Source of the DNA: a virus
Direction: 5' to 3' (one strand)
Virus record (IMG/VR): IMGVR_UViG_3300018432_000001
Location: 78,478-142,477 of that record
DNA: 64,000 nt
Shown here: positions 175 through 16,051 of the stretch, piece after piece
How the letters are laid out: every line of letters starts with the position of its first letter
Numbering within the stretch: position 1 is the first letter of the stretch
Position numbers and translations under genes: made by a program
The notes under the pieces: generated by a model
The model's database searches: none
What the model was told of the DNA's origin: nothing
Seen by the model: only the letters and a program-made list of their open reading frames with translations

Positions 175-1704
175 ATGGCTGAGACTTCTACCGTCCGAGG
201 CCGGATGGCCCGGTTCACGCGCCTGGACGACATGGGTCGTCCGCTGTACGGACCGGGCAACCAGGCCGTCACCAAGGGCATCATTTCGGTCACCTACACC
301 CCGAACGTCACCGAAGGCGAAGCCACCTCGGTCACGAACTTCGCGGGCGAACAGTGCATCTCGGCCCCCGCGCCGTGCGCGACCATCGACAACTGGACCG
401 TCGGCGTCGAATTCTGCGCCGTCGACCCTTGTGTCGTCCTGATGATCTACCCGTCCTGGATTCCGATTTATGACGATTTCGGGTCGATCAAGGGTTTCCA
501 GATCGTCGGCGGCCTGTCGTGCGACGTCGGTTTCGCCCTGGAGATCTGGGGCCAGATCGGATCGGCAGGGTCGGCCATCCAGTGCGGACCGGGCGCCGTC
601 TCGGGCTCCACGTACTGGCTCGCGCCGCGCCTCGTGGGCGCCGCTCCCGGCGAAATCACGATCAGTAACGAAGCGACTTCATTCACGTTCAACGGGACCA
701 CCACGAGCCCCGTGGGTTGGCGCCGTGGCCCGTACCTGGTCGACATCGTCAACGGCGTGCCCTCGGTCCTGCGCGACCCGGTCGACTCGGCCGCGCAGCT
801 CGTGGAGTTCACCACGCAGGTGCGTCCGCCCGAGCCCACCAACGGCTGCGTGGAGCTGCCGCGACCGGTCCCGGAGGAAGCGAGCGTCATCATCGACCGC
901 GTTCCCACCGACGACACCGGCATGTGCGCGCGCTTGATCATCGACAACCATGGATTTGGCCCGGTGACGGTGAACTGGGGCGACGGTTCGGACCCCGAGA
1001 CCAGCGGCGACTGCTCGACCATCACCCACTGCTACGCCACGCCGGGCACCTACACGGTGTGCGTCGCCGACCAGCAGACTCCGGCAATCTCGACCTGCCG
1101 CGACATCGTCGTGCCGATGCCTGCCGACCAGCCGACCATGACGCTGGCCGTCGACCCGACCGACGACATGTGTGTCATCGCCACCATCGACATGCCGCCG
1201 CAGTCCGATGGACGCGTCGAAGTCACCTGGGGCGACGACACTGCCGCGTCCACGGTCGAAATCACGCCGGGCACGCCAGTGGAAGTGCGCCACTGCTACG
1301 CCACGCCGGGCGTCTACACCGTCCGTGCCGTGCGCGTGGAGCAGCCGGACTACTACACCACCGCAACCGTCGTGGTGCCGGTCATCGCCAACCCCATGGT
1401 GTCGGCCGCCGTCGACGGCCAGGTGGTCACGCTGACCGTTGACAACAACGGCAACGGGCTGACCACTGTGGAGTGGGGCGACGGCACCACGACCTCCGGT
1501 CCGAACACGGACGGAGGCAACGTCCAGCACACCTACGCCGCCGACGGCACCTACTCGATCACGGTCACTTCGGTGTCCAACCCACTCTCGACCACCACGG
1601 TGCAGGTCACCATCGGTGCCGCTCCAGGCCTCCAGGCCGGAGTCGATGCCGATGAAGGCGATGTGTCGGGCATGACGGTCGAAGTCACCTGGAACAACGC
1701 CTAG
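175..1704 (+). CDS. Major tail (tube) protein with three C-terminal PKD/Ig-like domains plus a terminal half-domain
   Basis: N-terminus VRGRMARFTRLDDMG resembles Streptomyces-phage tail tube proteins; three WGD..H.Y..PG.Y repeats; GGGGAGG RBS. Confidence 0.8.
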   Translation: MAETSTVRGRMARFTRLDDMGRPLYGPGNQAVTKGIISVTYTPNVTEGEATSVTNFAGEQCISAPAPCATIDNWTVGVEFCAVDPCVVLMIYPSWIPIYDDFGSIKGFQIVGGLSCDVGFALEIWGQIGSAGSAIQCGPGAVSGSTYWLAPRLVGAAPGEITISNEATSFTFNGTTTSPVGWRRGPYLVDIVNGVPSVLRDPVDSAAQLVEFTTQVRPPEPTNGCVELPRPVPEEASVIIDRVPTDDTGMCARLIIDNHGFGPVTVNWGDGSDPETSGDCSTITHCYATPGTYTVCVADQQTPAISTCRDIVVPMPADQPTMTLAVDPTDDMCVIATIDMPPQSDGRVEVTWGDDTAASTVEITPGTPVEVRHCYATPGVYTVRAVRVEQPDYYTTATVVVPVIANPMVSAAVDGQVVTLTVDNNGNGLTTVEWGDGTTTSGPNTDGGNVQHTYAADGTYSITVTSVSNPLSTTTVQVTIGAAPGLQAGVDADEGDVSGMTVEVTWNNA

Positions 1705-1714
1705 GAGGGCTGCC

Positions 1715-3016
1715 ATGACCGTCACCATTCAATGGGACGCCGATGCTCCATTGACGGCCCAGCCCGACGCGGGCACCGCAACGAAGGTGTACACGACTGC
1801 AGGGCCCGGAACCGTGACCATCACCGACGAGGCCATCGGCGGTGACAGCGTCACGCTGGACTACACCGTGCCGCTGGAAATGACCACAGTGGTGCCGACT
1901 CCGAACACGGCCGATTCGGCCGGGACCGCCGAAGAGCGCACCATCTCGGTCGCTGGCGAGGGCTTCCCGGCCAGCATGGCGGGCACCGTGGCCATCGCCA
2001 CGGGCGTGCCCGGCGCGTTCGGGACCACGCTGGTGTCGACCTCGGCCACCACCAACACCGCCGGGATCTTCACCGACGTCGACGTGGTGGTGCCAAGCGA
2101 TGCTGCCGCCGGTGACTACCACCTGGAAGTCAGCTTCGGGGCCATCGTGGACCTGTCGGCTGCGATCACGCTCACCAACACCGAGCTCGCTGCGCCGACG
2201 TCGCTCGCGTCGCCGTCGCAGACCTCGACCACGGTCACCCTGACCTGGGCGGCAGTGACCGACGCCGAAACGTATGTGGTCCGTTCCTCGCCTGCAGGCG
2301 CTGGTACTTGGGTCGAGCGTGCCCCGGTGGCGGTTCTGACCGACACGGTCTCGGCGCTCACCGCGTTGACGAGCTACGACTTCCAGGTCAAGGCGCAGGC
2401 CACGGGCTCGACCGATTCGCCGTGGTCGACCACGCTCACGCAGTCCACGACCGCGCAGCCGGTGCTGGACGCACCGGCGAACCCATCGGCGGGCACGCCG
2501 ACGACCACGACCATCCCGTTCTCCTGGGATGCGGTCACCGACGCCGAAACGTACACCGTCGAATGGCGGATCAGCCCGGCCGGAGCCTGGACCGCAATCG
2601 ACAGCATCGCCACCACCAACACCACGGTCAGCGGCCTGGACCCGAATACGACGTACGACCTGCGGGTCAAGGCCGTCGCTGATGGATTCACGGACTCTCC
2701 GTTCTCTGCAGTCGTCACCGAGTCCACCGATTCGCTGGGCACGTTGGCCGCTCCGACCGGTATCGCCAGCCCGTCGCAGACGGCCACGACGATCGACCTC
2801 ACGTGGGACGCGGTTCCCAATGCCACCAGCTACGGCATCGAACGGTCGCCTGCGGGGGCCGGGACGTGGGTCGAAGTGCAGACCGCTGGGACGAACGCTG
2901 CGACGGTGACCGGCATGGTCGCCAGCACTTCATATGACTTCCGGATTTCGGCTCGCGCCGCCGGATGGGTCGACTCGGACTGGTCGGCCACGTTCACCCA
3001 AGCCACCACCGCTTAA
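1715..3016 (+). CDS. Virion decoration protein: N-terminal half-PKD, an Ig-like domain and three FN3 domains
   Basis: AGGAGG RBS; three P..L......T.....W..V..A..Y.V...W.....L...T.YD..V.A repeats. Confidence 0.85.
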   Translation: MTVTIQWDADAPLTAQPDAGTATKVYTTAGPGTVTITDEAIGGDSVTLDYTVPLEMTTVVPTPNTADSAGTAEERTISVAGEGFPASMAGTVAIATGVPGAFGTTLVSTSATTNTAGIFTDVDVVVPSDAAAGDYHLEVSFGAIVDLSAAITLTNTELAAPTSLASPSQTSTTVTLTWAAVTDAETYVVRSSPAGAGTWVERAPVAVLTDTVSALTALTSYDFQVKAQATGSTDSPWSTTLTQSTTAQPVLDAPANPSAGTPTTTTIPFSWDAVTDAETYTVEWRISPAGAWTAIDSIATTNTTVSGLDPNTTYDLRVKAVADGFTDSPFSAVVTESTDSLGTLAAPTGIASPSQTATTIDLTWDAVPNATSYGIERSPAGAGTWVEVQTAGTNAATVTGMVASTSYDFRISARAAGWVDSDWSATFTQATTA

Positions 3017-3034: not shown

Positions 3035-5260
3035 GTGCCTATCGTGTTGCAGCCTGTCGACCAGCTCGCGCACAACGAGCTGGCGCAGCGGCTCGCCTGC
3101 TGGGCCAAAGCCGAAGACGGCTTCACCGACAATGCCCTGATCTACCAGTCCTGCTGTGTCTCCCCCACCGGGCAGACGCTGGGCCGGTGGGTCGTTGACG
3201 AAGCGCTGTGCGCCGAGTACGGGCCGTTCGACTTCACCGCCAACGAAGGCGACGTTATTGTCTGCCCGACGCCGGGTTCGGCCGAGTACACCAACTACTA
3301 CATCTACGACGACGACGTCCACGCTATCGACCCGAACACCTGCATCGAGCAGCTGCTCGCGGCGCCGACAGGCCTGAACTCGCCCACGCAGGGACCCACC
3401 ACCGTGGACCTGGCGTGGGACGCCGTCCCTGACGCTCAGCGGTACGTCGTCCGCTGGTCTTTGGCTGGTCAGGACGACTGGACGGAGCTGGCGCCCACGT
3501 TCCTGCTGACCGCCGAGGTCACGGGCCTGACCGACGAAACGAGCTACGACTTCCAGGTGCAGGCGATCGCCGTGGGCTTCGTCGACTCGCCGTGGTCGGC
3601 CACGCTCACGCAGGCCACCACCTCGCTGGGGACGCTCGCAGCGCCTACGGGGCTCGCGACCCCATCGGCCACCGGTACCACCATCGACGTCACCTGGAAC
3701 GCCGTCGACAACGCCACCGGGTACACCGTGGAATGGTCGCCCACCGGCGCTGGAACGTGGACTCCGGCGACCACGGCCACGAACTCGTACACGATCACCG
3801 GTCTGACCTTGGACACGTCCTACGACATCCGCGTCAAGGCGACCGCACCGGGCTGGACCGACTCGCCGTATTCGGCCCAGATCATCGGCTCTACCGAGGC
3901 GCAGCTCGCCACTCCGGCGGGGCTCGCGTCGCCCTCGCAGACCGGCCTGACCGTGAACCTCACGTGGTCGGCGGTCACCGACGCCAACGAGTACGTCGTG
4001 CGCTGGTCTCCGGCCGGTGCGGGCACCTGGACTGAACTGGCGCCAGTAGGCATCACTAGCGCGACGGTGTCCGGTTTGACCGCCTCTACCAGTTACGACT
4101 TCCAGGTCAAGGCCCAGGCCGAGGACTTCGTCGACTCCGCGTGGAGCACCACGCTGACCCAGTCCACGGCGGCTGTCCTGGCGACGCCGGTACTGACGAG
4201 CCCATCGCAGACGGACACCACGGTCGCTTTGACCTGGGGTGCAGTGCCGAATGCGACGTCGTACACCGTGCAGTGGTCGCTGGCGCCGTCCGGTTCCTGG
4301 AACGCCATGCCGGACGTGTCGGGTACCGGGCAGACCGTCACGGGCCTGACCGCTGCCACGTCCTACCGGTTCCGGGTGCTGGCGCACGCTGCCGGTTGGA
4401 CCGACTCCGCGTGGTCGGCCGAGCTGACTCAGGCGACCGATGCCGCCCTGGCAGCGCCGACCGGGGTGAACAGCCCATCGCAGACCGCCTCGACGATTGA
4501 CGTCGCATGGACTGCCGTGGCGGGCGCGGACGGGTACACCGTCGAATGGTCCCCGGCGGGTGCGGGCACGTGGACGCCTGCGACGAACGCGGACACCACA
4601 TACACGATCATCGGGCTCGCGGCCGACACCGCCTACGACATCCGCATCAAGGCCACCGCGACCGGGTTTGCCGACTCGGCGTACTCGACGGTGCTCACGC
4701 AGTCGACGCTGGAAGTGCAGCTCGCTGCACCGACCGGGTTCGCGAGCCCCTCGCAGACCGACACGAGCATCAACACGTCCTGGGACGCCGTTGACGACGC
4801 CGAGTCCTACGTCGTGGAGTGGTCCCCGGCGGGTGCAGGCACGTGGACCCCGGTCCCCGCTGCCACGACTACCCAGGAGATCACGGGTCTCTCAGCCGCC
4901 ACCAACTACGACCTTCGGGTCAAGGCGATCGCAGACGACCACATCGACTCGACCTACGCAACGCTCACGCAGGAAACGCATGGGCCGCTGCTCGCGCCGA
5001 CCGGTCTCGCCAGTCCCTCCCAGACGTCGACCACGGTCGACCTCACCTGGAACGCGGCCATCAACGCCGATTTCTACGTCGTGCGCTGGTCGCCTGCGGG
5101 GGCCGGGACCTGGACTGAGGAACCGCAGGTGTCGGGGACCTCGGACACCGTCTCGGGGTTGACGGCCTCGACTTCATATGACTTCCAAGTCAAAACCATT
5201 GCGGACGGTTTCGCCGACTCTGGCTGGTCCGGCTCGCTTACCCAGTCAACTACCGCCTAG
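3035..5260 (+). CDS. Protein with seven FN3 repeats and a Cys-containing N-terminal domain
   Basis: Seven ~90-aa FN3 repeats; N-terminal ~105 aa shared with 5274..6161. Confidence 0.85.
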   Translation: MPIVLQPVDQLAHNELAQRLACWAKAEDGFTDNALIYQSCCVSPTGQTLGRWVVDEALCAEYGPFDFTANEGDVIVCPTPGSAEYTNYYIYDDDVHAIDPNTCIEQLLAAPTGLNSPTQGPTTVDLAWDAVPDAQRYVVRWSLAGQDDWTELAPTFLLTAEVTGLTDETSYDFQVQAIAVGFVDSPWSATLTQATTSLGTLAAPTGLATPSATGTTIDVTWNAVDNATGYTVEWSPTGAGTWTPATTATNSYTITGLTLDTSYDIRVKATAPGWTDSPYSAQIIGSTEAQLATPAGLASPSQTGLTVNLTWSAVTDANEYVVRWSPAGAGTWTELAPVGITSATVSGLTASTSYDFQVKAQAEDFVDSAWSTTLTQSTAAVLATPVLTSPSQTDTTVALTWGAVPNATSYTVQWSLAPSGSWNAMPDVSGTGQTVTGLTAATSYRFRVLAHAAGWTDSAWSAELTQATDAALAAPTGVNSPSQTASTIDVAWTAVAGADGYTVEWSPAGAGTWTPATNADTTYTIIGLAADTAYDIRIKATATGFADSAYSTVLTQSTLEVQLAAPTGFASPSQTDTSINTSWDAVDDAESYVVEWSPAGAGTWTPVPAATTTQEITGLSAATNYDLRVKAIADDHIDSTYATLTQETHGPLLAPTGLASPSQTSTTVDLTWNAAINADFYVVRWSPAGAGTWTEEPQVSGTSDTVSGLTASTSYDFQVKTIADGFADSGWSGSLTQSTTA

Positions 5261-5273
5261 TTAGGAGATAGCC

Positions 5274-6161
5274 ATGCCTATCGTGCTCCAGCCGATCGAT
5301 CAGATCGCTAAAAAGGAGTTGGCTCAGCAGCTGGCCTGCTGGGCGCGGGCCGCCAACGGCCTGACCGACGTCGCCGTCCAGTACGGTACCTGCTGCGTCT
5401 CGCCGACCGGCGAGACGTTGGGGCGTTGGACGATCCCCAACGACCTCTGCACCACGTACGGTGAGCTTCCGTTCACCGGAAATAACGGGGAGACGATCGT
5501 CTGCCCGCCCGTCGGGTCGGCCGAGTACGTCTCGTACTACATCTACGACGAAGACGTCGACCCGATCGACGTGGACACCTGCACGCCGCTGGTGGCGCTC
5601 GATGCGCCGACTGCGCTCGCGGCCGGGACCCCGACCGACACCACCATCCCGCTGACCTGGGTCGCCTCGGCGAACGCCAACGGATACACGGTGTCGTACT
5701 CCTCGGACTCGGGCACGACCTGGCTGGAGGTACAGGCCACCGGCAGCCCGTTCACGCTGACGGGGCTGACGCCGGAGACGACGTACACCATCCGCATCCG
5801 CGCGACCGACTCGACGAATACGTTCGCGAAGTCGCCGTGGACGAGCACGGTCACCGCCACCACGGAGTCTTCGCTGCCTGAGCTGGACGTCCCAGAGAAC
5901 CTGGCGACCGGTACTCCAGCGGCGACCGAGATGCCGCTGACCTGGGATGCGGTCACGAACGCCGTGTCGTACCACGTCCAGTACAAGACGACGGCATCGT
6001 CGACGTGGCTGGACTTCGCGACCGAGCCGGTCACGCCGTCGACCACGGTCACGGGCCTGGTGACCGCAACCAGCTACGACTTCCGGGTGCGCGCCAACGC
6101 CGACGACATCTCGTTCTCGGACTCGGACTACAGCGCGCCGGTCACCGAGACCACCGCGTAA
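5274..6161 (+). CDS. Protein with two FN3 repeats, paralog of 3035..5260
   Basis: MPIVLQPIDQ..LACW..CCVSPTG N-terminus; two FN3 repeats; AGGAG RBS. Confidence 0.85.
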   Translation: MPIVLQPIDQIAKKELAQQLACWARAANGLTDVAVQYGTCCVSPTGETLGRWTIPNDLCTTYGELPFTGNNGETIVCPPVGSAEYVSYYIYDEDVDPIDVDTCTPLVALDAPTALAAGTPTDTTIPLTWVASANANGYTVSYSSDSGTTWLEVQATGSPFTLTGLTPETTYTIRIRATDSTNTFAKSPWTSTVTATTESSLPELDVPENLATGTPAATEMPLTWDAVTNAVSYHVQYKTTASSTWLDFATEPVTPSTTVTGLVTATSYDFRVRANADDISFSDSDYSAPVTETTA

Positions 6162-7047: not shown

Positions 7048-7121
7048 TCGCGGGGAGCGGATTTGAACCGCCGACCTTCAGGTTATGAGCCTGTTGAGCT
7101 ACCGAACTGCTCCACCCCGCT
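7048..7121 (-). tRNA. tRNA-Met(CAT), initiator-like
   Basis: AGCGGGG-TG-GAGC..GCTC, loop CTCATAA, T loop TTCAAAT; 1:72 mismatch and A11-U24; CCA not encoded. Confidence 0.9.
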
Positions 7122-7315
7122 GCGCGTCTCTGAGTGTAGCTGGTGTGCGGTGACGTCCTTTTCGAGTTGGTCCATGAGGGCGACCGACGAGGTCGTGCCC
7201 ACGTACAGGCACGCCATCCGAGAATTCGGCAAAGAGTATACACAACACCCTCATGTCCGTTTTGTCGTCTATAGTATGAATGACGTGGGTTTTTATTGCT
7301 AAGGAGGTCAGGCTG

Positions 7316-8884
7316 ATGGCGATCGCCCAGTACTCCGACCTGTTCTGGTATCCCTCAGGCACGCTGGCCACCGGCATCCAGGTACGCATCTTCGAACTCA
7401 ACGACAACGTGTTCGCCCCGCTCTTCTCCGACCCCGCCGGAACCATTCCCCTTGCCAACCCGATGACCACCAGCGCCACCGGCACCATCTCGTTCTACGC
7501 CGAGCAGGGCGAGTACTGGATGCACGCCGACTCCGAGAGTTTCCGGATCGGCGTCGGCCTGTCCCCGGTGACCCCGGAGACGATCGCCGCCATCGAAGCG
7601 GACGTGGCTGCGCTGCAAACCGACATGACAGCGGTCGAAGGCGACGTCACGGGCCTGCAAACCGCCGTAGCTACTGCGCAGGGCGACATCACGGCACTTC
7701 AGGGTGATGTAACGGCAGCGCAAGGGGACATTACTGCCTTGGAAGGGAACGTCGGAACCCTCCAGACCGACATGACCACCGCGCAGGGCGACATCACCGC
7801 GCTGCAGACCGGTTTGGGCACCGCGCAGGGCGACATCACCGCGCTGGAAGGCGACATGGCTACCGCGCAGGGCGACATCACCGCGCTGGAAGGCGACATG
7901 GCTACCGCGCAGGGAGACATCACCGCGCTGGAAGCGGCCATCGAGGTCACGGAAAAGGCGGCAGCATCCACACTGTCGACAGGCGTCTCTGCCGGTGGTG
8001 AGTTGAACGTCAACGGTGTGAGTTCTTCGGCGATTGATATCGCTCCGCTGGTCGGGTACATCACGTCGTTCGACATCGATCCGTTCAATCCTGCCATCAC
8101 CCGCATCGAATACCCCGGCGGGACTGTGGAGATGGACGCGGGCGCGCTCTCGCGGACCGCAACGGCGTGGTTGATGGACGTCAACCAGGTGATTACGCAG
8201 CAGGCGACGCCGCCCACGAATTCGCAGCGTCGCACCCACATCTTCTTGGGTATCACCGCGCAAGTCGGCGGCGTCATCATCGTCGACCAGACGTTGCAGA
8301 CCATTCTGCAACAACCCGCCAACCAACTGTCCGACCTGCTGAACTCGCTCGGCGCGTTCAACATCTCGGGGAACATCATCTCTGCCAACGGCGCGAACCT
8401 CATGATCAACCAAACGGCTGGAACGATGTTCGCCCAGTCGTTCAACCACTTCATGGGCCCCGTGCAGACCAACGACCCGCATGTGAACACGACGATGGCG
8501 CAGACCCCGGCGAACTTCCGGTACGCCACCCGCGACCCGAACACGCCGTTCGGGCTGCTTCGCAACACCATCGACGTCGCGAACTACGACAACGCAGGCG
8601 TCATCACGCCGATCGGCGGCGGCGCGAACTCCGCGACGATTCACCGCGTGTACCTGTTCGCGAACAACACCGCGAACGAGCAGATCGCCATCCAGTACGG
8701 GCAGAGCGTCTATGCGTCGCTGTCCGCAGCCGTCAACGCCATCGGTTCGGGCACGTTCGTGCAGAACCCGCTCATGAACGCCGCTGCCCTGCTGGGGCAC
8801 ATCTGCGTCATCCGGACCGCAACCAGCCTCGCCGACCCCGCGCAAGCCATCTTCGAAACCGCCGGAAAGTTCGACACCCCGTAA
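7316..8884 (+). CDS. Fibre-like virion protein with a coiled-coil shaft
   Basis: AAGGAGG RBS; 14-aa repeats QGDITALEGDMATA; globular N- and C-terminal regions. Confidence 0.7.
   Translation: MAIAQYSDLFWYPSGTLATGIQVRIFELNDNVFAPLFSDPAGTIPLANPMTTSATGTISFYAEQGEYWMHADSESFRIGVGLSPVTPETIAAIEADVAALQTDMTAVEGDVTGLQTAVATAQGDITALQGDVTAAQGDITALEGNVGTLQTDMTTAQGDITALQTGLGTAQGDITALEGDMATAQGDITALEGDMATAQGDITALEAAIEVTEKAAASTLSTGVSAGGELNVNGVSSSAIDIAPLVGYITSFDIDPFNPAITRIEYPGGTVEMDAGALSRTATAWLMDVNQVITQQATPPTNSQRRTHIFLGITAQVGGVIIVDQTLQTILQQPANQLSDLLNSLGAFNISGNIISANGANLMINQTAGTMFAQSFNHFMGPVQTNDPHVNTTMAQTPANFRYATRDPNTPFGLLRNTIDVANYDNAGVITPIGGGANSATIHRVYLFANNTANEQIAIQYGQSVYASLSAAVNAIGSGTFVQNPLMNAAALLGHICVIRTATSLADPAQAIFETAGKFDTP
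7600..7935 (+). repeat. 42-bp tandem coding repeats (two heptads each)
   Basis: ACCGCGCAGGG(C/A)GACATCACCGCGCTG recurs at ~7778, 7820, 7862 and 7904, with degenerate copies upstream. Confidence 0.85.
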
Positions 8885-8895
8885 GGAGATAGGTC

Positions 8896-9735
8896 ATGCC
8901 GGTCATCAACGTCGCGCCGACCGTCGCGGACGGTGAGGGAAACGCGCTGTACCCGTGCGAGCCGTGGCCGATCAACCCTGTGTGCTGCCCAGGGTGGCCT
9001 GCCGACCCGGCCGAGTGGGACCCCGCGCATTATGACGCTCAGTGGCTGGCCACGGTCGAGCTCTGGCGCGCGGTCGCCGGAGTCATCGGGCTGTGCCGGA
9101 CCACTGAGCTGCCGTGTCTGGACCAGTGCGTGGCGCGCCCGCTGGAGGCGTACTGGATGCGTCCCTACCGGGACGTCAACGGCGCCTGGTTCAACTCCAA
9201 GTGCGGATGCCGCGATACGTGCTCGTGCTCGCAGCTGTGCACGGTAACCCTCCAGGGGCCGGTGTACTCGATTGAGTCGGTCACCGTCGACGGCGTCGCC
9301 CTGGAGAGCGATGAGTGGAAGCTGCTCACCAACAACCGGCTCGCCCGCTGCGGCGGATGCTGGCCCGCCTGCCAGGACTACTGCACCGAGGACGGTCTCG
9401 TCGTCACCTACCTGCGCGGCATTCCGCCAGGCCTGGACGCCATCCGCGCCGTCAGCATCCTCGCCTGCCGCCGACTCCAAGAATGCCCACCAAGTGGCGG
9501 CGACTGCGGCACACTGCCCTCCGGCGTCACCAGCATCAACCGTGAAGGGCTGAACATGCAGCTGGACTCGACCATCGGGGCCGGGGAAGACGGCGTCATC
9601 CACTTCACCGGCATCGCCCGGGTTGATCGATGGATCGCTTCGATCAACCCCTACGGCGTCACCTCGAACCCATCCGTGTGGTCGCCCGACGTCGACACCT
9701 CGCAGGTCTGGCGCACCGGCACGGTGACGCCATGA
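8896..9735 (+). CDS. Cys-rich head-to-tail adaptor-like protein
   Basis: LP..VTSINREG and TGIARVDRWIASINP motifs typical of actinophage adaptors; position in the module. Confidence 0.65.
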   Translation: MPVINVAPTVADGEGNALYPCEPWPINPVCCPGWPADPAEWDPAHYDAQWLATVELWRAVAGVIGLCRTTELPCLDQCVARPLEAYWMRPYRDVNGAWFNSKCGCRDTCSCSQLCTVTLQGPVYSIESVTVDGVALESDEWKLLTNNRLARCGGCWPACQDYCTEDGLVVTYLRGIPPGLDAIRAVSILACRRLQECPPSGGDCGTLPSGVTSINREGLNMQLDSTIGAGEDGVIHFTGIARVDRWIASINPYGVTSNPSVWSPDVDTSQVWRTGTVTP

Positions 9736-9956
9736 TCCCGTTGATCGTGAGTCTGGTCTACACCGTTGCCATGCTGTTCACCGCACGCATGCTCTACCGC
9801 AACGCCGTCACCAGCGGCTTCGACGTCACCACTCCCGCGCGCCTATTCATGGGCGTCGGCTTCGCCCTGATCTATGCGCTGGCATGGCCGCTGCTGCTGC
9901 TGGGCATCGGGGCGGTGCGTTTCATCGTGCACCGCGCCAAGGGAGACGTCGCGTGA
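9732..9956 (+). CDS. Small membrane protein (two TM helices)
   Basis: MIPLIVSLVYTVAMLF...ALAWPLLLLGIG; ATGA and GTGA overlaps on both sides. Confidence 0.6.
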   Translation: MIPLIVSLVYTVAMLFTARMLYRNAVTSGFDVTTPARLFMGVGFALIYALAWPLLLLGIGAVRFIVHRAKGDVA

Positions 9957-10618
9957 ACGTCCTGGACTACCTCGAAGACGAGCTGCTGTCGTGCCTGTGC
10001 TCGATGCTGCGCACCGAAGGGCGTCCAGCTTGCGAGTGCCATCACTTCGGCGGTGACGTGCCGCCAGTCGGGGACCGCTGCCAAGCCAACACTGCCGGAG
10101 AGAACGGTCAAGTCTGGGTTCGCCGCATCTCGCAGGCGATCGAGGTCGATCCCGAAGACATCACGTTCGGTGGCCTCCCGTGCGCGAGTTCCTGGCAGGC
10201 GCAGATCGAGCTGGGCATCTACCGGTGCATCACCGCCATCCCCGACGACAACGGGAATGCACCATCACCGGCGGCCTACGACGCCGACCGGGATCTGCTC
10301 GTCGCTGATCGGGCGACCCTCGCGCAGGTGCTGTGCTGCTGGCCACTGGTCGGTGAGGCGCCCACTCCGGTGCCCTTCGACCTGCCTATCTCGGTGATCG
10401 CGGCGCAGATCCTGCCACTGGGGCCCACCGGAGGGTGTGCCGGTTCGATCTTGACGCTCGTTGTCAACGCGCCGCTCATCGTCGAAGAGCCCGTGGCGCA
10501 GCTGGTCGCCGGTGTCGATGCCGATCCTGCCGACCCGAGTGGTCAGACCGCCGTGGTCACCTGGCGAAACGAACCTGCGGAGGAGGTCTTCATTTCGCGT
10601 CCAGCCGGAGGTGGTTAA
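9953..10618 (+). CDS. Tail terminator-like protein with a C-terminal half-PKD tag
   Basis: GQVWVR, ELGIYRC and PLGPTGGCAG motifs; GTG start overlapping the upstream stop. Confidence 0.6.
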   Translation: MNVLDYLEDELLSCLCSMLRTEGRPACECHHFGGDVPPVGDRCQANTAGENGQVWVRRISQAIEVDPEDITFGGLPCASSWQAQIELGIYRCITAIPDDNGNAPSPAAYDADRDLLVADRATLAQVLCCWPLVGEAPTPVPFDLPISVIAAQILPLGPTGGCAGSILTLVVNAPLIVEEPVAQLVAGVDADPADPSGQTAVVTWRNEPAEEVFISRPAGGG

Positions 10619-11100
10619 TGGTCATCCGGTTGCGCGTAACGCGCGTCGACATCAACATGGCCGAAGCCAACCGGTTGCTGAACTCTCCGCAGGGCGAAGT
10701 GGCGTCGTTGGTGGTGCTGACGTCGCAGCGGGTGCGGGCGATGTGCGTGCAGCAGACCCCTGTGCAGGACGGCGACATGAAGGCCAGCTACGGGTTCGCG
10801 CTGCGTGTGCGGCCCTTCCGGTACATCATGGGCCGCGTTATGAACTTCGACGAGGCGGCGCTGTGGGTGCAGATCGGCACCGGGATCTATGGCAAACGGG
10901 GACGACCGATCACGCCGAACACGAAGCGGTTCCTGCGGTTCGAAGGCAAACGAGATGGTGCGCTGCTGTATCGGCGGTCGGTGAAAGGACAACCGGCAAA
11001 CCCGTTCATGTTGCGTGGCCTGATCAGGGGGACGTCGGGGCGCCAGCGGTGGGTGATCACGCCCGGTTCGGGGGTGCGGAACATCGGGTCGGGACCGTGA
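10618..11100 (+). CDS. HK97 gp10-like neck/minor tail protein
   Basis: TPVQDGDMKAS, ALWVQIGTG and VKGQPANPFM motifs. Confidence 0.7.
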   Translation: MVIRLRVTRVDINMAEANRLLNSPQGEVASLVVLTSQRVRAMCVQQTPVQDGDMKASYGFALRVRPFRYIMGRVMNFDEAALWVQIGTGIYGKRGRPITPNTKRFLRFEGKRDGALLYRRSVKGQPANPFMLRGLIRGTSGRQRWVITPGSGVRNIGSGP

Positions 11101-11155: not shown

Positions 11156-11668
11156 GTGACTGATGATCTGTTTACCTCGCGTCCGCTGGCCGATGCCCAG
11201 AAGCAGTACGCCAAGACCAGCCCCGCCGCGCAGCCGCAGAACGGGGCCCAGCCGCAGCGGGCCATCCGGCCGCAGCCCATTCTCGACATCAACCTCGACG
11301 ATGTTCCCGAGACTTCCTACGCCGAATTCGTGTTCCAGCTCAAAGGCAACATCTACACCCTCGGCATCGACGACGACACCGTGCTGTTCGACATCGCCGA
11401 GATGAGCATGGACGAGGTCAGCCCCACCGACCTCTTCGAGTACTTCTTCGAACGCACTTTCCGGCGCGCCGTCGACGAGAACGGCGACGAGATCGACGAC
11501 GGCCTCGGCGTGCTCCTGCGGGCCACCGCCGCCCGCCCGCGCGACAACTCCCGTCCGGTGCCCAGGCAGCAGCTGCTGCGGATCATGAACACGGCCGTCG
11601 AGGACTGGATGGGCGAGCTCACCGACACGAACATGCGGCCTAAGCGCCGTTCGGGTCGCCGTCGTTGA
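11156..11668 (+). CDS. Tail assembly chaperone (putative)
   Basis: Acidic small protein two genes before the tape measure. Confidence 0.55.
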   Translation: MTDDLFTSRPLADAQKQYAKTSPAAQPQNGAQPQRAIRPQPILDINLDDVPETSYAEFVFQLKGNIYTLGIDDDTVLFDIAEMSMDEVSPTDLFEYFFERTFRRAVDENGDEIDDGLGVLLRATAARPRDNSRPVPRQQLLRIMNTAVEDWMGELTDTNMRPKRRSGRRR

Positions 11669-12195
11669 TCTCCTCGTTCGCCACCACTGTCCACATGCCT
11701 GGGATCTCGCCCGACCGCGTGCTGCTGCGCATCGACGACGAGGACTTCGAGTTGCCGGTTCCAGGCGCGCAGCGCCTCCTGGACATCGGTGCCTCCTACG
11801 GATGGCGCCATCTCATGCCCGACGGCCTGGTCACGGTGGACAAGGAGCGCATGTACGAGCGCCTGAAAGACCCCGAGGACTTGATGAGCTGGAAGCGGCT
11901 GCACGTGATCGCGCAGCCGCTGGGGCTCTATCTCTACGGGTTCCCGTTCTTCGTGGCCTCGCGCGCGCTGGGAACGCTGCGGCACTACCTCACGTCGTTT
12001 CGCATGTGGTCGGTATGCAACCTGCGGATCGATCTGGCCACGGCGAGCGCGGCCGACTGGTGCGCGGCGGCGGTGACGTGGCTGGTGCAGACCGGTGACA
12101 AGGAGGAGAAGCGGCTGGAGATGTGGGCGCAGCTGACGACGCCGGGGGTGTTGCCCATGGAAGCGCCGGGGGTGAGCCCCGATTGGATGGCTTAA
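11665..12195 (+). CDS. Second tail assembly chaperone (putative)
   Basis: Immediately precedes the tape measure; -1 frame relative to the upstream gene. Confidence 0.5.
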   Translation: MISSFATTVHMPGISPDRVLLRIDDEDFELPVPGAQRLLDIGASYGWRHLMPDGLVTVDKERMYERLKDPEDLMSWKRLHVIAQPLGLYLYGFPFFVASRALGTLRHYLTSFRMWSVCNLRIDLATASAADWCAAAVTWLVQTGDKEEKRLEMWAQLTTPGVLPMEAPGVSPDWMA

Positions 12196-12262: not shown

Positions 12263-15200
12263 ATGGCAGTAATTGCGACTGCAGAAGTTCGCGTTGTCGC
12301 CGACACCTCCCGGTTCCTCTCCAACCTGCGGCGCCAACTGCGCGGTGCCTTCAGCCAAATCGGCGCCCAAGCTGCCCAGCAGTTCACCAACGCCTTCAAC
12401 CAGAACATCGGCAACCAGTTCACCGGCGGTCTTCGCCGCGCAGGCCAGCAAGGTGGCGTCTCCTTCACCGACGGATTGCGCACCGCCCTGCGCCGAGGGC
12501 TGCGCGGCATCCAGATCCTCGGCTTCCTCAACCTCGCCATCGTCCAAGGCCTCCAAGGGGCTGCGCAGCTGGTCTCCAGGGGGTTGCGCGTTGCCTTCGT
12601 GGAGGGTGGCCGTGGCATCGTCACCGCGTTCCAGAACGCCGTGGTCAACCCCCTACGCACCTTGATCGGGAACCTCTTCGGCCGGGCGCTGAACGCCACG
12701 CTGTCGCGTCTGGCACCCCTGTTCGCCGCTGCCGGAGCCGCAGCCCGCAACGCCTTCTTCAGCCAGATGGCCGGAATCGGCGCGGCCATCACGAATTTCA
12801 TCAACAGCCCCGTCGGCCAGGCACTGGGTCGCATCCCGGCGCTGTTCCGCGCCGCAGGCGACCTCGCTCGTGAGGCGTTCTTCCAGCGTATGGCCGGAAT
12901 CGGCGCGGGCATCATGAACATCATCGAAGGGCCGATCGGGCGCGCCGCCACCCGCATCGGGCAGCTCTTCGGCGCGGCCGGTGACCTGGCGCGCGAGTCG
13001 TTCTTCCGCAGTATGGCGGGCATTGGCGCCGGGATCACGAACTTCATCGAGAGCCCGGTCGGCCGGGCACTGGGCAGGCTTCCCGCGCTGTTCCGCGCCG
13101 CAGGCGACCTGGCCCGCGAGGCGTTCTTCCAGCGCATGGCGGGCATCGGTGCGCTCATCACCAATGTTCTGGAAAGTCCGATCGGACGTGCCCTGGGTCG
13201 CCTCCCGGCGCTGTTCCAGGCGTTCGGCACCCGTGCCAGTGATGCGTTCGGGCGCGGTCTGCTGCGGTTGCGCACAGCGGGTACGACGGCCGTCAACAAC
13301 ATCACGCAGGCGATCAACCGTGCAGGTCCACGTATTCAGGCAGCGGCCACCCGTGCGTTCGGTCCCGCTGCGCAGAGCGTCCAGCGGGCCTTCAACCTCA
13401 TCCCCTGGGCACGCATCGGCCAGGGCATCGGCCAGTTGTTCGGCCGGGGTGTCGGCGATGGAGCTGAGGAGGAGACGCAGCGGCGCGGCCAGAGCATCGG
13501 CGCGCGCTTCGGATCGGCCATGACCCGAGGCCTCACCGCCGGGCTGCGCGGCCTCAGCACCGCACTTGCGTCCATCTCGCTGCGGCCCTTGCAAGCCTTG
13601 GCCGGAATCTTGGGCAACGCCACCAGCGAGATGATCTCCATGGCGGCTCAGGCCCTGGTCGTGGTCGGCCTCCTGGAGTCGCTCTCAGGCGCCCTGTTCG
13701 CACTCCCCGCCGTGCTCAACGTCGTAGGCGCCGGTGTCGCCACCGTCGCCATCGCCTTCAACGGCTTCGGCGCCGCTATCGGCGCGGCCTTCGAAGACAC
13801 CGCCGCCTTCGAAGAGGCGCTTGAAGGCCTCGCTCCAGCGGCCCAGAGCGTCGCCCGCGAGTTCCAGGCCATCGCCCCCGCGCTCACCGACATGCGCCTG
13901 GGCGCGCAGGAGGCACTGTTCTCCCAGCTCGCAGGCACCATCACTGCCGTTGCCGATAACCTGCTCGGCCCCCTCAGCGAGGGCCTGAACCTCGCTGCCG
14001 CGTCTTTCGGGGGGATCGTCGCCGGGATCGGCGAGTTCCTCGCCCAGAGCGCCACCGCTGGCACCGTTACCGCCACGTTCGCGACGCTTTCCGCCATCTT
14101 CGACGCGCTCGCGGTGTCCACAGTGCCATTCCTGGAGGCGATGCGCCTCCTGGCCGACACCTTCCTGCCTCGAATCGCCGAAGCAGCCGGTCCCCTCGCC
14201 GGGCTCGGCGCCCAGTTCCAGGCCTGGACTGAGCAGGTCGTCGCCTCCGGCGACGCCATGGCCGCCTTCGACTTCGCCATTCAGGTGTTTCAGCAGCTCG
14301 CCGGGGTAGTCGGCAGTCTCGCCGGGATCTTCCAGGCAGTCTTCTCAGCTGCCGAGCTCGCCGGTGTCGACGCGCTGGGCGCCATCGGCGAAGGACTCGA
14401 AGTCGTCCGCACCACCTTCGAATCGTTCGAGGGGCAAGCGGCCCTGGCAAACGTGTTCGCGGCCATCGGCACCACCGTGCAGGCCCTAGCGCCCGTCTTC
14501 GCCACCCTGGTGACCCAGCTCGGCCTCGTCTTCCCGATCGTCGGGCTGATCGCCGAGGCGCTGGGCCCCAGCTTGTCGGTCGTCCTCGAAGGACTCGGGC
14601 AGGCCCTGCTCGCCCTCGGCCCCGGCGTCGTCGAGGTCTTCGCCGGGATCGCCGCCGCCGCTGAAGCCATTGCCCCCTCCCTCGCCCCCCTTGGCGCGGC
14701 CATCGGCGCCGTACTGACAGCGATCGCACCGATACTCCCTGTGATCGGCGAGCTGATCGGGATCGTCGTCACCCTCGGTGCGCAGATCCTCTCAGTGTTG
14801 GCAAGCGCGATCATGCCGATCGTGCAGGCGCTCGCAGGCGCCCTAGCTCCAGTTTTGCCCCTTATTGCCGATTTGTTCACCAGGCTGGTCACGGCGCTCG
14901 CGCCCGTGATCGAGGCTCTGGGCGCCGGGCTGGCAAGCGTTATCGCGACCCTGCTGCCGCCGATTCTGCAGCTCGTCGCCGCGCTCGCGGAGGCCTTGAT
15001 GCCGATCATCGAGGCGCTTTTGCCCGTTTTGACCCCAATTATTGAGATTTTCTTCCAACTGGTCAATGTGATCGGTTCGTTGCTCGTTCCCATCATTTCC
15101 CTGCTTTTGCCCATTATTGAGGCACTTAGTCCGGTTTTGCAGCTGGTCGGGCTCGTCCTCGCTCCCCTGCTGGAGCTCTTCTCGGCGATCCTGGAGCCGA

Positions 15201-16051
15201 TCACCACGCTGATCACGCTGATCGCGGGCCTGCTCACGCCCGTGATCGAGTTCCTGGCCGAGATCATCGGCGCGATCATCGGTGCCGCGCTGACGCCGCT
15301 GACCGCCGCCTTCGGGTTCCTGGCCGACATCCTCGCTGACCACGTCATTCCGTGGTTCGAGGAGAGCACCGCGATCCTGAAGCTGTTCTGGGAGACCGCG
15401 ATTGAGCCGCTGATCGAGTGGATCGGTCGGCTCAGCAGCGGGGTCACCGAGCGATTCGGCACTATCCGTGACGCAGTGACCACTCTCTGGAATCTGTGGA
15501 AAAACCGGTTCGACCTCATGGAGAGCCTGATCGAGACCGTGGTCGACGTGGTCTCCGACGCGGCAGGCAACATCGGTGACTTCTTCAGTAACATGGGCGA
15601 CACGATCAGTGACGTCTTTGACAACATGCTGGACGGCCTGCGCAGCGCCCGCGACACCATCTCCGGCATCGTCGACTCGATCGTCGGATTCGTCCAGGAC
15701 GCCATCAACACCGCCCAGAACCTCGGCGACATCGACCTCAACCCGTTCGCCAACGGCGGCATCGTCAACGGACCCACCGCCGCGCTCATCGGCGAAGCGG
15801 GACGCGAGGTCGTCATCCCCCTCACCCGGCCCCAGCGCGCCGCCGAACTCGCCCAGCAGTCGGGACTCATCGATCTGCTCGCTGCCCAAGGCGCTCTTGG
15901 TGGAGCTTCCATCAGCGGCACACCAGCCGGTCCTGTCGTCGGTGAGATGCACGTCCACTCCCAAAACGCCGATCCCGAGCAGGTCGCTCGCAAGGCGCTG
16001 CGAATCATCGAGCGCCGCATGGGCGGCCGGGGATTGGAGCGACTCTCATGA
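12263..16051 (+). CDS. Tape measure protein
   Basis: 1262 aa, Ala/Gly/Leu-rich helical repeats; N-terminal IATAEVRVVADT; C-terminal PFANGGIV..IGEAGREVVIPL. Confidence 0.92.
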   Translation: MAVIATAEVRVVADTSRFLSNLRRQLRGAFSQIGAQAAQQFTNAFNQNIGNQFTGGLRRAGQQGGVSFTDGLRTALRRGLRGIQILGFLNLAIVQGLQGAAQLVSRGLRVAFVEGGRGIVTAFQNAVVNPLRTLIGNLFGRALNATLSRLAPLFAAAGAAARNAFFSQMAGIGAAITNFINSPVGQALGRIPALFRAAGDLAREAFFQRMAGIGAGIMNIIEGPIGRAATRIGQLFGAAGDLARESFFRSMAGIGAGITNFIESPVGRALGRLPALFRAAGDLAREAFFQRMAGIGALITNVLESPIGRALGRLPALFQAFGTRASDAFGRGLLRLRTAGTTAVNNITQAINRAGPRIQAAATRAFGPAAQSVQRAFNLIPWARIGQGIGQLFGRGVGDGAEEETQRRGQSIGARFGSAMTRGLTAGLRGLSTALASISLRPLQALAGILGNATSEMISMAAQALVVVGLLESLSGALFALPAVLNVVGAGVATVAIAFNGFGAAIGAAFEDTAAFEEALEGLAPAAQSVAREFQAIAPALTDMRLGAQEALFSQLAGTITAVADNLLGPLSEGLNLAAASFGGIVAGIGEFLAQSATAGTVTATFATLSAIFDALAVSTVPFLEAMRLLADTFLPRIAEAAGPLAGLGAQFQAWTEQVVASGDAMAAFDFAIQVFQQLAGVVGSLAGIFQAVFSAAELAGVDALGAIGEGLEVVRTTFESFEGQAALANVFAAIGTTVQALAPVFATLVTQLGLVFPIVGLIAEALGPSLSVVLEGLGQALLALGPGVVEVFAGIAAAAEAIAPSLAPLGAAIGAVLTAIAPILPVIGELIGIVVTLGAQILSVLASAIMPIVQALAGALAPVLPLIADLFTRLVTALAPVIEALGAGLASVIATLLPPILQLVAALAEALMPIIEALLPVLTPIIEIFFQLVNVIGSLLVPIISLLLPIIEALSPVLQLVGLVLAPLLELFSAILEPITTLITLIAGLLTPVIEFLAEIIGAIIGAALTPLTAAFGFLADILADHVIPWFEESTAILKLFWETAIEPLIEWIGRLSSGVTERFGTIRDAVTTLWNLWKNRFDLMESLIETVVDVVSDAAGNIGDFFSNMGDTISDVFDNMLDGLRSARDTISGIVDSIVGFVQDAINTAQNLGDIDLNPFANGGIVNGPTAALIGEAGREVVIPLTRPQRAAELAQQSGLIDLLAAQGALGGASISGTPAGPVVGEMHVHSQNADPEQVARKALRIIERRMGGRGLERLS
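12707..13216 (+). repeat. 123-bp (41-aa) tandem repeats in the tape measure
   Basis: About 4.2 copies of RLPALFRAAGDLAREAFFQRMAGIGAGITNFIESPVGRALG. Confidence 0.85.

Follow-up and report, generated by a model that had tools for sequence, protein, structure and literature searches.

A candidate plug-and-socket docking hairpin in the tail terminator of a phage with a split Ig-like tail domain

In chaperone-usher pili, an immunoglobulin (Ig)-like fold is completed by a donor strand from another polypeptide, and binding is coupled to folding. The engineered SpyTag/SpyCatcher pair, derived from CnaB2, is a split Ig-like domain in which a graftable peptide docks on the remainder of the domain and forms an isopeptide bond. 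At the head-tail junction of phages, accessory fibres such as the fibritin whiskers of T4 and the neck passage structures of lactococcal phages are built from dedicated collar or neck proteins. The Ig-like domains of phage tail tubes are accessory and are thought to mediate weak adhesion to surfaces (PMC8718954). Tail terminators larger than the norm are known to carry whole extra domains, for example sheath-terminating or duplicated folds (PMC11784142). Here we describe a 64,000-nucleotide stretch (the window) of IMG/VR virus record IMGVR_UViG_3300018432_000001 (positions 78,478 to 142,477), the final 64 kb of a 142,477-bp single-contig phage genome with a G+C content of 66%. In this window a short hairpin, which we call the plug, stands both at the C-terminus of the tail tube protein and within the tail terminator, and the rest of the same PKD-like domain, the socket, opens a separate fibre gene whose product we call gp1715. 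On balance, we favour the view that the terminator segment would be a working copy of a portable hairpin (strands A-B) that recruits the gp1715 socket, thereby taking the coat of fibronectin type III (FN3) domains to the neck.

A hairpin shared by the tail tube and the tail terminator

The terminator hairpin (plug 2, QLVAGVDADPADPSGQTAVVTWRN) comprises 24 residues encoded at 10499..10570 on the plus strand, inside the segment 10490-10575, and is inserted at a position in the terminator that we term site B. Its counterpart (plug 1, GLQAGVDADEGDVSGMTVEVTWNNA; 1627..1701, plus strand) forms the C-terminus of the tube protein and corresponds to strands A-B of a fourth PKD-like domain. The initial annotation had proposed that the terminator peptide matches the tube end and does so with clear similarity of the DNA, and both parts of that proposal are borne out. 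Plug 2 and the C-terminal LQAGVDADEGDVSGMTVEVTWNN of the tube protein are identical at 15 of 23 residues (pairwise BLASTP expectation value (E) 5e-5), and in tblastn searches of each tag against the six frames of the 142,477-bp genome, plug 2 and the tube-end tag GLQAGVDADEGDVSGMTVEVTWNN (encoded at 1627-1698) retrieved only each other (E 4e-6 and 8e-6), the next match having an E of at least 0.02. In frame, the DNA of the two tags is identical at 44 of 69 positions, the highest value among the 96,228 pairs of in-frame windows that can be drawn from the two genes (background 21.1 +/- 3.9). The likeness of the DNA is real, yet an amino-acid identity of 65% would lead one to expect about as much.

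It had also been stated that no complementary half follows the terminator peptide, and this holds as well: downstream of plug 2 come EPAEEVFISRPAGGG and the stop codon, the next gene (10618-11100) is unrelated, and no second socket was found genome-wide, the sole socket-like N-terminus being that at 1715. The idea that the tag is appended to the terminator had to be given up, however. Alignment of the homologues places it as an insertion of about 28 residues that separates the gpU-like core ('...LIVEE') from a C-terminal tail of the form FxSxPAGxx, upstream of this conserved tail, which reads FISRPAGGG in the window (10589..10615, plus strand). Residues S216, P218, A219 and G220 of the tail are nearly invariant in 42 homologues, plug or no plug. 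In the alignment of 41 homologues, plug-less terminators (192-199 aa) proceed from '...LTVEE' through about five acidic residues directly to FxSxPAGxx; plug-bearing terminators are 220-224 aa long, with P0032 at 241 aa in addition. A second insertion point, site A (10364..10369, plus strand), is a loop after the motif CCWPLxGExP that is empty in the window and filled by a plug in L006, L007 and P0033.

The carrier had been described as tail-terminator-like, and structural modelling agrees with that description. Its AlphaFold2 (AF2) model, built with 42 homologues, has a predicted local distance difference test (pLDDT) score of 80, and Foldseek matched it to tail terminators with a probability of 1.0 and E of 7e-6 to 1e-4. 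VIA-align gave Z scores of 11.9 for the neck terminator of P74-26, 11.6 for lambda gpU, 10.9 for Mu and 9.9 for T5 p142, and model residues 2-176 superpose on gpU residues 3-134 with 125 aligned residues and a root-mean-square deviation of 2.7 A. The family search returned phrog_810 ('unknown function', E 3e-14) as its sole match, with nothing in Pfam at E<=0.01. On the strength of the model, the carrier is assigned to the lambda gpU-type terminator fold family, and the gene order around it (phrog_783 adaptor, 74-aa open reading frame (ORF), carrier, 160-aa gene, chaperones, tape measure) is compatible with a tail-terminator role. Plug 2 is modelled as a beta-hairpin (pLDDT 67-87) at model residues ~184-208, outside the gpU-like core. 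In T5 p142, the C-terminus of the terminator shares in the contacts between monomers (PMC11784142); by analogy, such inter-subunit contacts may account both for the retention of the tail and for the placement of the plug upstream of it.

A PKD-like domain divided between two genes

The socket is encoded at 1715..1873 (plus strand) and consists of gp1715 residues 1-53, corresponding to strands C-G of the split domain. When aligned by hhalign on the PKD repeats of the phage itself, the tags fall on columns 6-28 (P 1.5e-4) and the socket on columns 34-70 (P 8.6e-5), and the natural in-frame fusion of the relative L001, with its TAG read as Q, runs unbroken from column 7 to column 70 (P 3.4e-5). 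Comparison by eye and a hidden Markov model (HMM) built from the phage's own 15 PKD repeats both place the tags at positions 7-26 (strands A-B) and gp1715 residues 3-42 at positions 32-72, beginning at the W(G)D of strand C. Tag and socket concatenated give a single unbroken alignment to this HMM, with 16-19.5 bits compared to 13.5 bits for the socket alone. Scored directly against it, the socket has an E of 0.007 and the tags have E of 1.7 and 17; a six-frame genome search with this narrow model at default reporting missed the plugs and the socket. By tblastn against the genome, the socket matched PKD repeat 1 of the tube protein from the C strand onward (E 6e-5). Within the plug/socket domain, the PKD motifs WGDG and HxY give way to WDAD and KVY.

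The strongest evidence that plug and socket belong to one domain is a natural unsplit homologue, the 185-aa protein encoded at L021:9447-10004, whose relative at L034:9417-9998 reads alike. The readthrough product of L001 (P0042: plug, QEAA, socket) is colinear with residues 36-122 of the L021 protein (40% identity, E 2e-16), and the comparison of P0042 residues 1-87 with that protein contains one 2-residue gap, exactly at the plug/socket junction. Plug 2 itself matches the A-B part of the unsplit L021 domain with an E of 3e-6. As read from these alignments, the plug, with strands A-B, makes up roughly a third of the domain, and it and the socket (strands C-G) are non-overlapping, adjacent parts of one fold. 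An AF2 model of the fusion at L001:1468-1740 (TAG=Q, 15-row alignment) is of low confidence (pLDDT 58.5, predicted template modelling score 0.46, A-strand region below 50), and a Foldseek search of the PDB with this model found nothing below E 0.6.

We also observed that the last strand of the plug (MTVEVTW, window 1672-1698) resembles the first strand of the socket (MTVTIQW, 1715-1735), and MAFFT superposes the two; this likeness may reflect either the pseudo-symmetry of the hairpin or a short duplication at gene fission.

Between the tube gene and the fibre gene, the sequence reads as a TAG stop, a Shine-Dalgarno site AGGAGG (1703-1708) and the ATG of the fibre gene at 1715 (1702..1717, plus strand). 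TAG, GGAGG and ATG occur in the window and, apart from it, in all 12 clade loci whose sequence includes the junction (L001-L003, L006-L010, L013, L014, L032 and L033), with a consensus in which the tube end ...SG[ML]TVxVTW[ND]NA is followed by TAG, GGAGG and an ATG opening MTVxIQWD. In more distant phages, homologues of gp1715 open with MTVx[VIL]xWDxD at residue 1, and the socket runs from residue 1 onward in fibre-like Ig/FN3 proteins at 38-46% identity (P0043, P0045, P0047 and P0050-52). The socket gene lies directly 3' of the plug-bearing tube gene in L020 and L022; in L021 its ATG overlaps the gene of a small plug-bearing protein by 4 nt, and a like overlap is present in L034.

This arrangement bears on whether the plug-bearing proteins could instead be extended by programmed frameshifting, readthrough or hopping, so that the domain is completed in cis. 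A 2006 study by Fraser et al. is said to have described programmed frameshifts that add Ig-like domains to phage structural proteins. Such domains often join structural proteins in this manner, as in SPP1 gp17.1* (PMC8718954), and the fibre gene is indeed in frame with the tube gene in L001, L010 and L013. Across the clade, however, the spacer is 9, 10, 12, 13 or 14 nt long and the frame relation is 0, +1 or +2, both varying among close relatives; the Shine-Dalgarno site and the ATG are always present, and neither alternative frame downstream of the terminator plug encodes a socket-like sequence. Because the spacer falls in all three frames and the fibre gene has its own Shine-Dalgarno site and ATG, a conserved frameshift or readthrough is ruled out, in line with the stance of the initial annotation, which had disfavoured frameshifting. 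We consider recoding in any of these forms exceedingly improbable, and the tube and fibre genes are, on this reading of the junction, translated separately.

If plug and socket meet in trans, the following scheme seems reasonable to suggest. The socket alone would lack a complete hydrophobic core and would fold onto any exposed plug, in a two-strand version of fold complementation. With one plug at the C-terminus of each tube subunit, FN3 fibres would coat the tail after the tube had polymerised. The terminator hexamer would cap the tube, and a plug in the linker between its core and its tail would provide six more docking sites at the neck. We infer that plug and socket bind, that the terminator sites are occupied and that some benefit follows, such as weak adhesion to the cell surface by way of fibres at the neck.

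Distribution and maintenance of the plug

Among the 42 terminator homologues, 21 carry a plug at site B, 20 carry none and one (P0033, after CCWPLAGEPP) carries a plug at site A, the state likewise found in the terminators of L006 and L007. The plug consensus across the 21 site-B proteins is LVASVDADPxDxTGQTAVVTWRN. A maximum-likelihood tree of the 42 terminators was computed with the tag columns removed; P0041, the most distant homologue, with a garbled C-terminus, was left out of the tree. The contig of P0041 (ENA ERZ25039469) has a socket gene cut to 47 aa (P0066, linked to it by matching length alone) and may represent an element that is in decay or was poorly assembled. The tree requires at least five changes of plug state, with site B deep and widespread. 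The site-A clade (support 100/94) is nested within a plug-less clade, and the plug was thus re-acquired there at the other loop. At the DNA level, the site-A plug LQAGVNVGAADPTGMTVEVTWNN agrees with tube plugs of the window/L002 type at 57-58 of 69 positions, compared with 38-53 of 69 for any site-B plug against any tube plug and 49 of 69 for the site-A plug against the tube plug of its own genome; this closeness to the window/L002 type fits a separate, later capture.

Site-B plugs are kept in terminators that have diverged to 57-63% identity. In pairwise comparisons of site-B plugs, synonymous divergence (pS) is 22-75% and non-synonymous divergence (pN) 2-25%, as in pairs with pS 0.49 and pN 0.05 or with pS 0.46 and pN 0.06. 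The ratio pN/pS is below 0.3 in 12 of the 21 pairs and above 0.5 in three, and the terminator plug is under purifying selection (pN/pS ~0.1-0.3).

These data also speak to the possibility that the terminator segment is a near-neutral scar, a piece of the 3' end of the tube gene copied by illegitimate recombination into a permissive linker and tolerated there. Its patchy distribution with several losses would suit such an origin, as would insertion sites that are flexible acidic linkers, a negligible stoichiometric contribution and a site-A copy that looks like a recent transfer from the tube plug of another lineage. Against a scar stand the low pN/pS values and the retention of site-B plugs in such diverged terminators, the maintenance of the hairpin consensus in 21 proteins and the regain of a plug elsewhere by a plug-less lineage. 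We rate this explanation as improbable.

Plugs are also carried by other proteins of the relatives. Two tandem plugs end the tube proteins of L020 (9844-9984), L022 (9841-9987) and L024 (minus strand, ~3686-3798), and the L020 terminator and that of the L024/L027 phage have site-B plugs. In L020, Y replaces the conserved W in the last tube plug (VTYSTQ) and in the terminator plug (AIYSNQ). The small proteins of L021 and L034 (185-193 aa) consist of one unsplit plug-plus-socket domain followed by two orphan plugs at the end. In both the tube-protein C-termini and these small proteins, the last plug stands directly before the socket gene. A scan of viral contigs for DPxDxTGMTA gave ten matches, five of them in tube or terminator plugs of the group (L023, L024, L027, L004); the two in L026 and L028 belong to a complete Ig-like domain (117 aa) that is unrelated, and the three in L025, L029 and L030 were set aside as chance. 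A metagenome scan with the socket profile found four loci.

L021 and L034 also contain what looks like a second split (L021:8368-10004 and L034:8359-9998). Here the 356-359-aa tube protein stops after PKD strand C ('...DWGDR'); in L021 its stop overlaps the next start (TAATG), and the small gene that follows opens with the remaining strands ('MADYTLEHTY...'). In L021 and L034, split domains would then be strung together in a chain. The L021 junction is preceded by a G6 run, and given this run it is possible that the second split of L021 arose from assembly error or slippage.

A further observation concerns the head region. In L034, the gene that immediately follows that of the major head protein (phrog_777) encodes a phrog_779 protein (L034:7074-8057) with an internal plug-like hairpin RPDPVDPTGYTALAEW, and the L021 homologue of this protein (7091-8053) has a decayed hairpin (RPGSVD--GLTALASW). 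The phrog_779 protein may represent a third type of carrier for the plug, located on the head.

The initial annotation had called the peptide reusable, and the discovery of the module at two terminator sites and in other proteins of the relatives upholds that idea: as judged from these sequences, the plug moves between sites and proteins. More tentatively, one may envisage a system with one socket and many plugs, in which a hairpin of ~24 residues is moved by recombination and, wherever it has landed, brings in one and the same Ig/FN3 fibre through fold complementation. The candidate plug sites in such a system would be the tube C-terminus (single or tandem), the two terminator loops, the small protein and possibly the phrog_779 protein of the head region.

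A functional hairpin need not dock gp1715. It could have a role inside the neck, for example by touching the C-terminal tail of the terminator itself, the connector between head and tail or the uppermost ring of the tube. Alternatively, it could bind another partner, for instance Ca2+ or a glycan of the host surface. A neck-internal role would suit a plug that is under purifying selection and adjoins an invariant C-terminal tail, the more so as that tail may mediate contacts between subunits, by analogy with T5 p142 (PMC11784142). The BLASTP match to the unsplit domain moreover runs into the tail (VFISRPAG aligned with VSIRWDAG), and the tail could on that account mimic strand C in cis. For a ligand role, the acidic DADPxDPxG loop resembles the Ca-binding loops of cadherin-like Ig domains, and the socket has a weak Cadherin_4 match (E 0.03). 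The tail is retained in plug-less terminators, however, and hence is not there to pair with the plug; the same hairpin occurs at the site-A loop, distant in sequence from the tail; and the last plug directly precedes the socket gene at tube C-termini and in the small proteins of L021 and L034. A neck-internal or ligand role without docking is, in our assessment, unlikely.

Several findings weigh against a docking function of the terminator segment, or against the description of the domain on which it builds. With the Pfam PKD models (PF00801 / PF18911), neither plug, nor the socket, nor any of three natural in-frame fusions produced a match at E<=10, and other Pfam models offer weak Ig-like hints, namely Cadherin_4 on the socket as given above, Big_3_5 (0.055) and Big_1 (0.12). 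The 'PKD' label rests on likeness to the phage's own repeats (E 1e-4 to 1e-5), and since the Pfam PKD models are blind to all of the pieces, 'PKD-like Ig sandwich' is the accurate label. Of the earlier term 'half-PKD', membership in an Ig/PKD-like domain stands, whereas the proportion was too large and the PKD assignment finds no response in Pfam. If the tube is taken to offer ~270 sites, as we estimate from the tape measure (1,262 aa), six terminator sites would add only ~2%. In the terminator tree, clades without a plug arise inside plug-bearing clades on at least three occasions, which means at least three losses, and the plug-less terminator P0010 is 85% identical to that of the window. 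The initial annotation had held that a tag missing from close relatives with the split gene would speak against docking, and four such relatives exist: L008, L009, L010 and L013 have a 509-aa tagged tube protein and a 432/433-aa fibre gene together with a terminator that lacks the plug. The socket gene is present in every phage with usable flanks, so that the co-occurrence of plug and socket carries no information. Finally, all L034 plugs read TGYTA and all three plugs in the L021 small protein read TGMTA; these within-genome concerted changes reach the unsplit domain too, and gene conversion, as opposed to co-evolution with a partner, could be their cause.

As to the four plug-less relatives, their terminators mean that the terminator site is dispensable and not that the tag fails to dock, because the plug was re-acquired at another loop and the tag is subject to purifying selection.

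Gene neighbourhood and comparison with known systems

All genes listed here for the tail region lie on the plus strand, and their assignments derive from ORF calls and from Pfam and PHROG searches. The major tail (tube) protein gene (175..1704) encodes 509 aa (phrog_792, E 3e-55; Pfam PKD, E 1.5e-13), arranged from N to C as a tube domain, three complete PKD repeats and the orphan plug; over residues 3-316, the protein shares 31-36% identity with proteins annotated as major tail proteins in Arthrobacter and Microbacterium phages. The fibre or decoration protein gene for gp1715 (1715..3016; 433 aa; Pfam fn3, E 1.4e-20) encodes the socket, one more Ig-like domain and three FN3 domains. It is followed by genes for FN3 proteins of 741 aa (3035-5260) and 295 aa (5274-6161), both with Pfam fn3 matches. 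These two proteins have in common a Cys-containing N-terminal domain of ~105 aa (window 3035-3350 and 5274-5590) without a family match, followed by seven FN3 repeats in the former and two in the latter; the shared domain may be a second, different anchoring module.

The head-tail adaptor gene (8896-9735; phrog_783) is followed by a small ORF (window 9630-9956; 74 aa in the calls of relatives, hydrophobic by eye), whose stop overlaps the GTG start of the terminator gene (GTGA). The terminator gene (9953..10618; 221 aa; phrog_810) has its likely GTG start at 9953, and its stop is overlapped by the ATG of the 160-aa gene (10618-11100; TAATG). The product of the latter has no Pfam or PHROG match, and the gene is kept in all relatives; we take its N-terminus to resemble HK97 gp10-like neck proteins. 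Two chaperone-like genes (11156-12195; named by position only, without a family match) and a tape measure-like ORF (12263-16051; 1,262 aa; named by size and position) come next. In a cultured-phage collection of 50,697 records, there was no DNA or protein match to the terminator and none to the fibre N-terminus (socket), and the match to the tube protein was confined to the tube domain. With terminator and socket unmatched among cultured phages, the clade is, within the reach of this collection, one known from metagenomes only.

We regard this locus as a probable natural plug-and-socket decoration system. In the full-text literature, we found no account of an Ig domain that is divided between virion genes and serves as a docking tag for repeated use, which is not proof of absence. 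If the docking model is true, the assembly principle would differ from that of the Ig decorations known in phages, which belong covalently to capsid or tail proteins or extend them through a frameshift, and the small half of the domain would be a transferable address label. Decoration would take place after tube assembly, its stoichiometry would be set by the expression of a single gene and its position could evolve by moving ~75 nt. The plug and socket would also be a small natural peptide/domain pair of possible use in displaying cargo on phage particles. If binding fails, the segment would instead be a conserved insertion that recombination brought into a gpU-type terminator.

In placing an Ig fold outside the tube at the C-terminus of the major tail protein, this phage resembles lambda (gpV C-domain), T5 (pb6 Big_2 domain) and SPP1 (gp17.1* FN3 domain). 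In those three phages, the Ig-fold domain and the tube protein form one covalent chain, with a frameshift joining them in some; here, by contrast, the array would continue on a separate polypeptide by way of a split domain, and the attachment peptide is found again on the terminator. The terminator has the fold of the lambda gpU type and its gene likewise lies in the head-tail joining module, but it has ~45 extra C-terminal residues (the plug and the conserved tail), and unlike the larger terminators that carry whole extra domains (PMC11784142), it carries a fragment of one. In contrast to the neck fibres of T4 and lactococcal phages, the neck site would have arisen by copying the tube docking peptide into the terminator. 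In pilins, a single strand (G) is missing and its donation serves polymerisation, whereas here two strands (A-B) would anchor a decoration and the tag stands on unrelated scaffolds. A covalent isopeptide bond of the SpyTag kind was set aside as a candidate, the Asn of WxN not being conserved in distant plugs and there being no sign of such a bond. If the model holds, the pair would nevertheless be a natural counterpart of the engineered split-Ig tags, with which the phage surface could be re-patterned while the fibre gene is left untouched.

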